Virus record (IMG/VR): IMGVR_UViG_3300030097_000525
Coordinates: 1-38,928 of that record
Length of the DNA: 38,928 bases
Direction: 5' to 3' (one strand)
Source of the DNA: a virus
Taxonomy: Duplodnaviria; Caudoviricetes
Part shown: in pieces, positions 12,296-21,024 of the stretch
How the letters are laid out: each line of letters opens with the position of its first letter
Numbering within the stretch: the first letter of the stretch is position 1
The notes under the pieces: model-generated
Databases searched by the model: none
What the model was told of the DNA's origin: nothing
The model's input: only the letters and a program-made list of their open reading frames with translations
Program-made: the position numbers and the translations under genes

Positions 12296-12577
12296 TGTAA
12301 GGAGTGTGTAACACCTTGAACTAAAAAAAGAAGTGTAAGGGGTGTCCCGAGAAAGTTCTTTTGTGTCAACTGCAAGGGATTACAGAGGTTTAAAATATAA
12401 GATATTATGCATCATAATCTTATTATACTGTCATAGGTTAAAGTATAAAGTGAGTAATTGCAAGGGTTTTCAAGGGTTTAGGCTTTTTATTTTGATTAGG
12501 TAGGTAGGAAATGTAAGGGGTTATGTAAGGGGTTAGAGAAGTGTAAGGGGTGTCCCCTGTCCCCTCAAGGGACACCC
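12296..12577. promoter_or_regulatory. Putative attP: arm-type direct repeats around an AT-rich core
   Basis: TGTAAGGGGT at 12334, 12512, 12524 and 12542, with a variant at 12296. Exact 20-bp repeat at 12329-12348 and 12537-12556. Non-coding, downstream of the integrase operon. Confidence 0.65.
12548..12577. terminator. GC-rich hairpin between convergent operons (possible terminator)
   Basis: GGGTGTCCC-N12-GGGACACCC perfect 9-bp stem; no strong U-tract. Confidence 0.35.
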
Positions 12578-14214: not shown

Positions 14215-14468
14215 ATTACTCCTTTTGAAGTGGCCTCCTTGAGACCGGGTTAACTCATTTATATAAAATGAGATTTAATTTTAAACTATTTCGACAAAAA
14301 CCTCAAGCAAAAAATGTAAAATAATGAAAATAAATGAAAATAATTTATTTCCTCAATGATTTCATGAGGATAAATAGTGAAATAATTTGGTGTAAGGGGT
14401 GTAACTCCTGACATTTTCTATCTTTTTTTAAAGCTTGAGGTTTCTTCAAAAAAAAGTAAAATAAGTTG

Positions 14469-14497
14469 TTGACAATGTTTTTATTTAGGAATAGAAT
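14469..14497 (+). promoter_or_regulatory. Sigma70-type early promoter
   Basis: TTGACA-17 bp-TAGAAT with an upstream A-tract; predicted start near 14504. Confidence 0.8.
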
Positions 14498-14554
14498 CAG
14501 TATATGGCAAATCAATTGCATTGTCAGAAGGAGCAGTTTTGGAATTAACATTAA

Positions 14555-14615
14555 GGGGGGGTGGTCTCAATTCAGGGACTGTGGAATTTGCTCCTTTCAC
14601 CACATATGCCCCCCT
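14555..14615 (+). ncRNA. Structured leader element (three-way junction, anti-SD loop)
   Basis: GGGGGGU/GCCCCCC closing stem with two internal hairpins; a loop carries UGCUCCUUUC. Confidence 0.45.
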
Positions 14616-14672
14616 CATATTTGAAACAAGGAAGTATGAACTGACGTTATATTTGTAACTGAAAGGAAAAAT

Positions 14673-15746
14673 ATGAGCAAGAAAAAAGAAATTGATATTC
14701 TTTTTAGGTCTTCATTGGATGATGTTAAAGATGTTAAATTCTCCCCTGACATTGAAGGATTTACAGTTGGCACAGAAGGACAGTTAGAAATAGAACCTGA
14801 GTGGTTTCCTGGTGAAGACGATTTCTTTTGTGTTGACAGTTACCCTTCTATCCTCAATTGCACCGAAGCTGAGTACCACAAAATCCAAGCTTTCTCAAAC
14901 TCCTTTGGGTCAACTCTTTTAAATGAAGATCCTTGGTTTCAGAAAGCTTGGACAGGAATAGAACCTTCCAGACCTATGATCTTAGGATCTGCTGCAGAGT
15001 TATATCTTGAATTATTATCAGACTGTATCAAGGACCAGAGTTTCATAGATCTTGACCGAATGAATTGGAAGGTAGGTAAGGTCTTTGAGCATGTTGTCGT
15101 GATGCCCCTGTGGGAAGGCACTGGAGCGCGGAAAAATCAGAAAGCATTCAAGGAAGATAACGAAGATAAGCTGATCATTACTGAAAAGGAATTTGACACA
15201 ATAATGATGATGCTGAAAAGCGCACTCTCAAATAGTCAATTTTGGGAGAGGTTAAACGGAACCTGGCAGACTGTGATCCTGTGGATTGAGGACGGTGTTC
15301 CTATGAAAGCTATGTTGGACCACATTACGCAGAACCTGATCACAAGAAACGTCAAAACGCCCGGAGATCTCAAGACCACTGATATAGGGAATCCCAAAGC
15401 ATTTCATAAAAAAATGTACGACAGGAATTACGATATGCAAGCATACCACTATACAGTGGCACTTCAGTCTCTGTATCCGGAAGAAAAGATAGGTCCTTTT
15501 ATTTGGTATGTTTTAGAAACTCAAGATCCCTATGGCAGTGCGGTTTATTATGCAGACGAAGTTGTGCTTGAATCTGGAAGAGCTAAACGTGCTCGAGCTA
15601 TTGAAATAGCCAAGCAGCTTCACAAGAAGGGGGAGCTTGCAGAGTTCCCTAATTACTCACCTGACTTTCCTAAAGAGTTCACCCTTTGGGATTGGCAGAT
15701 AAACAAAAGCCTCAGAATGGAGCAAGAAAATGAGACAGTTAACTAA
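14673..15746 (+). CDS. RecE / exonuclease VIII-like PD-(D/E)XK exonuclease (DUF3799-like)
   Basis: KAMLD..DLKTT..YDMQAYHY motifs; adjacent to RecT. Confidence 0.85.
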   Translation: MSKKKEIDILFRSSLDDVKDVKFSPDIEGFTVGTEGQLEIEPEWFPGEDDFFCVDSYPSILNCTEAEYHKIQAFSNSFGSTLLNEDPWFQKAWTGIEPSRPMILGSAAELYLELLSDCIKDQSFIDLDRMNWKVGKVFEHVVVMPLWEGTGARKNQKAFKEDNEDKLIITEKEFDTIMMMLKSALSNSQFWERLNGTWQTVILWIEDGVPMKAMLDHITQNLITRNVKTPGDLKTTDIGNPKAFHKKMYDRNYDMQAYHYTVALQSLYPEEKIGPFIWYVLETQDPYGSAVYYADEVVLESGRAKRARAIEIAKQLHKKGELAEFPNYSPDFPKEFTLWDWQINKSLRMEQENETVN

Positions 15747-17628: not shown

Positions 17629-17877
17629 GTGAAGATGTTGGCAGTAAAGAAGAAGAAACGAGGTAGACCCTTTAGTCTGTTTAAGCATTCAAGTAGGGGT
17701 AGACCTAAAGAGAGTATTCAAAGAGCGTTTCTGTTCTATTTAAAATACTCAAAGGCAAGGCACGTTCTCAAAGTTTGTCAAGGACGTGATTTAACTATAA
17801 CTCAATACTTCGATGATCTGGTTACAAAGGATCTCGGATCAAAATCTAATAGGAAGGAAGAATCCAATGGCAGGTAG
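17629..17877 (+). CDS. Small DNA-binding protein (two AT-hook-like RGRP motifs plus a ribbon-helix-helix-like C-terminus)
   Basis: KKRGRP and RGRPK, then a strand-helix-helix pattern; strong RBS. Confidence 0.55.
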   Translation: MKMLAVKKKKRGRPFSLFKHSSRGRPKESIQRAFLFYLKYSKARHVLKVCQGRDLTITQYFDDLVTKDLGSKSNRKEESNGR

Positions 17878-20829: not shown

Positions 20830-21024
20830 GTGAGAAAACCTTATCTAACAACGATTGAATCTTTGGACCTGCTGCGTGATTCTGATATTACGTTGACCTA
20901 TGAGGCACTGAAGAAACATATTCAAAGGGGGAACTTATCAACAAGGCAGTTCAGGAAAGGAGGGACGCATTTAATCACCCGAGGAGCACTAACTGAGTTT
21001 ATAAAACATTATGAAACAAGGTAA
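20830..21024 (+). CDS. Excisionase-like (MerR / HTH_17) DNA-binding protein
   Basis: 64 aa; YLT..E.., I.RG.L and GG..LI...L.EFI winged-helix pattern. Confidence 0.65.
   Translation: MRKPYLTTIESLDLLRDSDITLTYEALKKHIQRGNLSTRQFRKGGTHLITRGALTEFIKHYETR

Follow-up and report, generated by a model that had tools for sequence, protein, structure and literature searches.

A conserved three-way-junction leader RNA precedes recE in temperate phages with and without a repressor gene

The window, by which we mean the whole stretch of 38,928 nt that was analysed, is a complete phage genome with a 99-nt terminal repeat. Its layout is that of a temperate podophage. The integrase lies on the minus strand; recE, recT, replication and terminase genes come next on the plus strand, which also carries an SU10-type portal gene and capsid, tail and lysis genes; going round from recE to 12294, almost all genes are on this strand. 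The relatives compared below are uncultured, being contigs from marine viral and metagenome data. A blastn search of 50,697 GenBank phage records gave no match, and a pattern scan of prokaryote genomes gave 20 matches (best E 0.014), none of which was accepted as a homolog. Relaxed pattern scans of viral sequences (120 and 90 loci; the first scan comprised 12 of 64 parts) added one true homolog, L086. Sequence upstream of recE was present in 28 loci, several of them near-duplicates. L068 and L086 are referred to as the distant phages, and a set of 21 loci as the close group. An RNA run (X1), covering a small share of the stretch, contributed two 151-nt contigs of depth 2 in the promoter region, upstream of the junction described below, which is not evidence of expression. 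The features of the region are given in Table 1.

Table 1. Features between the integrase gene and recE (positions in the window; strand as + or −)
Feature	Position	Strand	Basis or remark
Tyrosine integrase, intact, 458 aa	12838..14214	−	phrog_1, E 1.6e-25; PF00589; L003 integrase 82% identical
Integrase RBS, complementary to P3 loop	14215..14226	−	−12.5 kcal/mol; recE site −10.1 to −10.7
Candidate leftward promoter, integrase operon	14278..14306	−	9/12 consensus; region conserved in relatives
Repeat copy TGTAAGGGGTGTAA	14391..14404	+	repeat clusters at 12296-12555
Empty slot (in relatives, HTH repressor and second gene)	14405..14468		blastn of relatives' cassettes matches flanks only
Early rightward promoter, TTGACA-17-TAGAAT	14469..14497	+	11/12 consensus; prediction by match
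14-codon leaderless ORF, spans upstream site	14504..14548	+	same start in 6/6 repressor-less loci
Upstream site, putative decoy, 10 bp with P3 loop	14527..14536	+	contains AAGGAGCA, 14528-35
39-codon TTG ORF	14539..14658	+	length, frame and sequence unconserved
GAATT, proposed second target	14542..14546	+	unsupported; p 0.19 here
Three-way-junction leader RNA	14553..14616	+	fold, model R1 matches, covariation
P1, closing stem	14555-62/14608-15	+	G-run/C-run
P2 (hairpin 1)	14563-80	+	fold
P2 loop AAUUCA	14569..14574	+	seven variants in 20 loci; no conserved partner
P3 (hairpin 2)	14581-14603	+	fold
P3 loop, anti-Shine-Dalgarno core CUCCUUUC	14585..14599	+	core in 20/20 tabulated loci
recE RBS TGAAAGGA, 8 bp complementary to P3 loop	14660..14667	+	
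recE (RecE/exonuclease VIII-like), operon gene 1	14673..15746	+	phrog_412, E 8.5e-32; PF12684

A first, sequence-only reading of this DNA had placed a three-way junction in the leader between a strong promoter and recE. The promoter was confirmed as a prediction, and the letters and positions given for the closing stem (14556-62/14608-14), the hairpins, the ORFs and the proposed targets were all correct. P1 extends to 14555/14615, and the loop of P3, rightly placed, is 4 nt longer than quoted. Folding energy alone was unremarkable and within chance (169-nt leader, z −0.42; core, z −1.46); the fold is accepted as real because of its conservation, not its energy. A covariance model (R1) built on 18 leaders found exactly one copy in 27 of the 28 loci, always after the promoter and directly 5′ of recE or of a short gene preceding recE. 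The sole miss was L069 (RecE 36% identity), where a repressor gene is present and R1 gave no match. In L086, which was found by pattern scan with no protein bait, the same order of repressor, RNA and recE was seen.

We tested covariation on a MAFFT alignment of 13 homologs, structure not being used in aligning. Paired cells amounted to 88.8% as against 78.7% in shuffles, and 7 of 14 pairs had changed on both sides as against 4.2. None of 500 shuffles, which ignore relatedness, equalled any pairing measure, and slid controls were lower as well. A model-fitted alignment agreed with the structure-free one. Both P2 and P3 covary, their inner three pairs taking nine and six forms, respectively, in 20 loci. 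Constrained folds of 23 loci gave a J2/3 of 0-1 nt and a J3/1 of 2-6 nt, often A-rich. The G-U pairs indicate that the plus strand is the RNA strand. A minus-strand reading, with a GGA loop, was rejected on the fit of the G-U changes to the plus strand and on the loss of the junction from the other strand in the window and L027; in L005, L068 and L086 the junction folds on both strands. Rfam scans of the window and its homologs returned no relevant family. We conclude that the junction is a real, conserved and covarying leader RNA that is uncatalogued. An interpretation of P1 as an intrinsic terminator was discarded, as no conserved U-tract follows it (3-6 U in 8 nt); neither an intrinsic terminator in the leader nor a terminator-like site between the RNA and recE was found.

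The core of the P3 loop is constant in the distant phages too, within a loop of 15 nt in the window and 12-17 nt across loci. Located 23-37 nt before P1 is a site complementary to it. Pairing of the loop with this upstream site exceeded that in shuffled leaders in 17 of 19 loci (p≤0.04), or 17 of 20 with L086 added; these 17 loci are related and hence not independent. The pairing fails in L016, L068 and L086 (p 0.94 and 0.76 in the distant phages). The site occurs in at least four forms (contiguous, bulged at two loop positions or shortened), each with 8-12 pairs. It is contiguous, with 8-10 bp, in all six loci that lack the repressor gene, and bulged in others. The site also codes for an in-frame K-E-Q of a short upstream ORF. 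Pairing survives a change of E to G (L006, L018 and L021), of Q to H (L015) and stops (L004), and its retention through such changes in three lineages mildly favours RNA pairing. L016 has lost the pairing and kept the frame and K-x-Q, so the upstream site may owe part of its conservation to encoding the start of a peptide.

The Shine-Dalgarno (SD) sequence of the first gene is complementary to the P3 loop in all close loci, as had been read from the window. This match went beyond chance in only 3 of 19 loci (p≤0.05), because any strong SD matches an anti-SD loop. In 21 of 21 close loci, P1 is followed by an SD-like site at a distance of 7-46 nt (7-9 nt in seven). In L068 and L086, the recE start regions pair weakly with the loop (−5.1 and −6.8 kcal/mol) and are ~200-360 nt away. 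The sequence-only reading had called for covariation of loops and targets in related phages. The stems do covary and the upstream pairing is kept; a compensatory change between loop and target was not demonstrable at either site because the loop barely varies. Of the bipartite upstream target proposed in the same reading, only the half facing the P3 loop was upheld. The P2 loop is variable, and its pairing with the upstream leader, where GAAUU had been proposed, gave p 0.09-1.0 in 19 of 19 loci; with sequence 3′ of the SD, p was 0.24-1.0 (20 loci). A kissing contact between the P2 loop and the 5′ side of the loop of P3 (only two loci of 20 with p≤0.05) and self-pairing of the P2 loop (palindrome absent from 4 of 20) were rejected.

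The leaderless ORF has 12-14 codons in four of the six repressor-less loci, 40 in L015 and three in L004, and an upstream ATG is common to all six. The 39-codon ORF, which had been thought to carry translation through the structure, did not hold up. Its counterparts in L004, L023, L029 and L034 have 22-28 codons and other frames or ends, and a start of this type is absent from L015 and from the repressor-bearing loci. Variation in length, frame and sequence rules it out as a conserved peptide.

Folds of nascent transcripts had the P3 loop paired upstream of P1 in 15 of 20 loci (two of them partly), and P1 re-formed in all 20 full-length folds. In the window, the upstream pairing came first and was then displaced by P1. 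Nested (pseudoknot-free) folds of the window leader gave −33.6 and −31.2 kcal/mol for the two loop pairings compared with −40.2 kcal/mol for the free junction. Since both pairings thus cost 7-9 kcal/mol, the full leader would need a pseudoknot or a second molecule.

A divergent HTH repressor gene lies beside the RNA in 17 of 23 loci (15 of 21 examined, plus L068 and L086). It encodes 104-113 aa, and the rightward promoter overlaps its start codon at the −35 box. The product matches the phage repressor family phrog_3 (E 2.7e-7); against HTH_3 it scored above the cut-off in L016 and L068 and below it in L012. Repressor identity between phages is 54-88%, and the P3 loop is nearly invariant, which is the reverse of what would be expected of an immunity-specificity determinant. 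The sequence-only reading had the RNA standing in for CI. With RNA and repressor gene together in 17 of 23 loci, the RNA is not a CI replacement across the family, and we consider it unlikely to be a general substitute for a protein repressor.

The six repressor-less loci are the window, L004, L015, L023, L029 and L034. For the window, the earlier statement that there is no CI repressor is correct: among 844 six-frame segments, none matched the repressor profile with an E-value better than 1. It does not extend to the family. The distance from the repeat at 14391 to the RNA is 164 nt here and about 500-970 nt in repressor-bearing loci, a spacing so short that the cassette must be absent rather than diverged. 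In L034, a different gene (144 aa) fills the slot and no leftward genes were seen. On a RecE tree of 20 rows, from which L034 and some duplicates were excluded, the repressor-less state requires at least three changes and is interspersed with repressor-bearing phages. Moreover, L003 (with repressor) and L015 (without) have near-identical recE genes and RNAs. Recurrence on the tree and the near-identity of this pair indicate module exchange. Phages of the repressor-less type have their own, stronger predicted promoter and an intact integrase.

A search of the window for repressors with HMMs, also proposed earlier, found none of the family type and two small candidate DNA-binding genes in the rightward operon, one RHH-like (17629-17877), which occurs in both immunity types, and one HTH_17-like (20830-21024). 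Repressor-bearing leaders (L003, L005, L006, L012, L013, L016, L020, L024 and L026-L028) have an extra 5′ hairpin in the first 50 nt after the promoter, in several cases with a UUCC-containing loop and pair-preserving changes; it may double as an operator. L004, L014, L023, L029 and L034 carry a gene for a coiled-coil-like protein of 92-108 aa between the RNA and recE. At the corresponding place (14625-14643), the window has a 2-codon ORF with an SD, perhaps a remnant.

The closest known architecture is that of the int-alpA motif, which reportedly comes from a 2017 survey. It is listed in Rfam as RF02996 (type 'Gene; sRNA') and is a three-way junction of ~65-70 nt found in mobile elements. Its consensus has a P1 of about 8 bp, a short J1/2, a 4-bp P2, a 5-bp P3, a CCUU anti-SD loop and an SD ~9 nt after P1. 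Both thus combine three stems with an anti-SD loop on P3 and with an SD soon after P1. However, int-alpA combines GAAAA at J2/3 with 2 nt at J3/1 and a loop of 9 nt, whereas the leader RNA has 0-1 nt and 2-6 nt, respectively, at these junctions, a loop of 12-17 nt and a P1 that pairs a G-run with a C-run. The int-alpA model (gathering threshold 35.8 bits) had no match in the window at E≤10 or in five related virus records at E≤5; as a control, it gave over-threshold matches in 31 of 141 proteobacterial genomes. Conversely, R1 had no match at the int-alpA sites of 14 proteobacterial loci. The leader RNA is built like int-alpA and is not a member of that family. Literature searches found no functional study of int-alpA.

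The comparison with P4 CI and P1 C4 drawn by the sequence-only reading applies in part: the leader location and one loop complementary to both an upstream site and the RBS are shared, and the bipartite target and the specificity loop are not. Both known RNAs are cut from their leaders, C4 by RNase P at the 5′ end of P1, and give stable small RNAs that work in trans. C4 has three stems with one loop occluding an RBS (PMC5320573), and in P1 the c4 RNA acts beside the C1 protein (PMC8546580). Like C4 of P1/P7 (RF01695), the leader RNA has three stems, a location in an operon leader, a loop complementary to an RBS (complementarity only, here) and coexistence with a protein repressor. Unlike C4, it is ~62 rather than 77 nt long, precedes recE rather than an antirepressor gene and has no variable a′-type specificity loop with a target. 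The RF01695 model had no match at E≤10; in one search with it no control genome passed the cut-off, which makes that search by itself a weak negative. The CI RNA of P4 is the sole immunity determinant of that phage, which is not known to have a protein repressor. Resemblance to P4 lies in complementary sites upstream and downstream of the RNA (the downstream one being the SD, whose match is mostly within chance), in short leader ORFs and in the 6 of 23 loci without a repressor gene; the other 17 are unlike P4, and the leader has no conserved intrinsic terminator. For P4, PMC4825925 describes complementary sites on both sides of the CI RNA and premature termination caused by CI, and PMC3632133 also describes the P4/P1 RNA layout. 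No IsrK/seqA-like Rfam match was found.

The put element of HK022 is an antitermination element of two adjacent hairpins. To put and to boxA/nut sites, the leader RNA is similar in lying behind an early lytic promoter and in having two adjacent hairpins and a U/C-rich loop. It differs in that the hairpins are closed by a third stem, that there is one copy per locus and that its loop, compared by eye, does not fit the boxA consensus GYTCTTTAANA, which was derived for gamma-proteobacteria (PMC5725501). In the literature we found no description of this RNA. The portions of PMC2864571, PMC5737381 and PMC13612085 that were available do not describe it, and the part of the PMC10690425 supplement that could be searched for the loop motif gave no match; the supplementary lists of PMC5737381 and PMC10690425 may contain it.

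On the leftward side, direct repeats (TGTAAGGGGTGT) cluster at 12296-12555, downstream of the integrase operon. At up to three mismatches there are 10 matches, compared with a mean of 3.5 in shuffles (0 of 100 as high). The clustered repeats are likely to be arm-type (attP arm) sites of the integrase. Most loci have one further copy upstream of the leftward promoter, which may let the integrase regulate its own operon. Small unrelated genes between repressor and integrase have near-identical RBS regions and flanks, like exchangeable cassettes (L006, L012, L016-L018, L020-L022, L026 and L029). A minus-strand promoter-like site (14499-14527, 10/12) overlaps the rightward start, and a G-C-rich hairpin (14222-14245, minus strand) precedes the integrase RBS, with a similar hairpin in L006. 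Inside the end of recE, the RBS region of recT (15714-15729) has a pairing energy of −15 kcal/mol with the P3 loop in each of 12 homologs; this region is also under RecE coding constraint.

Taken together, these data lead us to propose, tentatively and with a probability of roughly 0.45, that the junction is a cis-acting translational switch in which the anti-SD loop pairs either with the upstream decoy or with the RBS of the first gene. As the leader emerges from RNA polymerase, the P3 loop would pair first with the decoy, leaving the RBS free. Transcription of the C-run would then allow P1 to close and present the loop, which could reach the RBS as a pseudoknot and reduce translation of recE and, through coupling or polarity, of the rest of the operon. 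Ribosomes translating the short upstream ORF would cross the decoy and shift the balance to the closed state. The switch would add a second layer of control beneath that of the protein repressor, and in repressor-less variants it might be the main brake. We count in its favour the fold, the covariation, the constant core, the upstream site and the position between promoter and recE. The distant phages fit poorly, because they keep fold and core without the upstream site.

An alternative, by analogy with P4 CI and P1 C4, is that the junction, once excised as a stable small RNA, targets in trans new leaders made by the phage itself or by an incoming one, controlling immunity or lysogeny alone in repressor-less variants and beside the repressor elsewhere. 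Complementary sites on both sides of the RNA are arranged as in P4, the three stems and RBS-complementary loop recall C4, and a stable product would be in keeping with the strong G-C closing stem. Presence of a repressor does not exclude such a role, since in P1 the c4 RNA works beside the C1 protein. This alternative is most plausible for the repressor-less type: here the upstream site is contiguous and the upstream ATG shared in all six loci, the type has arisen repeatedly (at least three changes), and the window is a complete genome with an intact integrase and no repressor homolog. We nevertheless regard a trans-acting role as unlikely. A second, specificity loop with a conserved target was not found, and the P3 loop hardly varies between phages whose repressors differ. 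RF01695 did not match, and neither a conserved U-tract nor a terminator-like site before recE is present. Furthermore, the RNA lies behind the very promoter that the repressor should shut, a second promoter being predicted in only 4 of 13 repressor-bearing leaders, and the window has other candidate regulators in its RHH-like and HTH_17-like genes. If the junction were instead a platform for protein or RNA polymerase, serving antitermination of the long one-way operon in the manner of nut or put, the loop would be kept as a binding site and the complementary sites would be incidental. Such a platform would explain an element directly behind the early promoter of a nearly all-plus-strand operon, a loop resembling boxA and the retention of fold and core in L068 and L086 without a clear local partner. 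However, the loop misfits the boxA consensus (which, being gamma-proteobacterial, may not be that of the host) and in L068 and L086 it lacks the first G; R1 found no second copy behind the leftward promoter. Weak terminator-like sites between 16000 and 27000 number 12, close to the chance level (8.2±2.4), only 4 of the 12 being on the plus strand, and it would remain unexplained why the upstream site takes four forms that all preserve pairing. We therefore consider the platform improbable.

The position of the RNA also suggests a role in place of Cro, in which trans pairing would silence the RBSs of the leftward integrase operon and so favour lysis. Directly after the RNA comes recE or one short gene, and a Cro-like gene was not found at this place. 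An SD extended by CAA/UAA, which pairs with UUG of the loop, was found in 14 of 22 leftward as against 2 of 30 rightward gene families (Fisher p 1.4e-5), and the distant phages have neither the loop G nor such sites. For the integrase RBS, pairing with the loop amounts to −9.2 to −14.4 kcal/mol and is in most cases stronger than for the recE RBS. The CAA/UAA pattern was, however, defined post hoc; shared flanks among leftward cassettes make the families non-independent, and the starts counted include an internal ATG at least once on either side. On energy alone the loop is not selective, given 310 sites in the window that reach −9.5 kcal/mol. Pairing with the repressor mRNA, prompted by a 10-nt match in L068, stayed within synonymous controls (p 0.07-0.7 in 14 of 14) and was rejected. 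This Cro-like role seems about as improbable as the platform. A combined version for the repressor-less variants, which retain integrase and attachment-site repeats, is rather unlikely; in it a released RNA would regulate lysis and lysogeny, its loop choosing between early and integrase RBSs, and cassette exchange would switch the family between control by protein plus RNA and control by RNA only. If it were true, one RNA would fill the roles of both CI and Cro.

The switches of temperate phages are almost invariably interpreted as protein circuits, and here a structured RNA occupies the position of Cro. It is the one element retained in repressor-bearing and repressor-less forms of the same phage group, and it may matter most in the natural repressor-less variant. 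L003 and L015, near-identical in recE and RNA, provide a natural controlled comparison, the first having the repressor and the second lacking it. This pair makes it testable whether the RNA can take over lysogeny control, and also what toggles anti-SD junction leaders built on the int-alpA plan. Should the RNA be only a brake in cis, it would still be an uncatalogued leader family.

Several structured elements outside the close group were seen in passing. Long, highly foldable non-coding stretches separate the RNA from recE in L068 (3645-4000) and L086 (200 nt after the RNA); they had no Rfam match, and L068 has a long-range stem whose 5′ arm shows complementarity to the P3 loop (p 0.22). An intergenic stem-loop family, characterised by GUAGG/CCUAC as inner stem and by an anti-SD loop, recurs in other viral contigs (L194, L199, L200, L217, L224, L227, L230, L241 and L245; about position 2000), again with no Rfam match (four scanned). 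Two unrelated phages carry a very similar three-way junction with a G-run/C-run stem and a UUUCCUCCUUUC loop (L244, 69-119, reversed; L271, 1807-1861); it had no Rfam match and in both lies directly before a gene with two SD-like sites.
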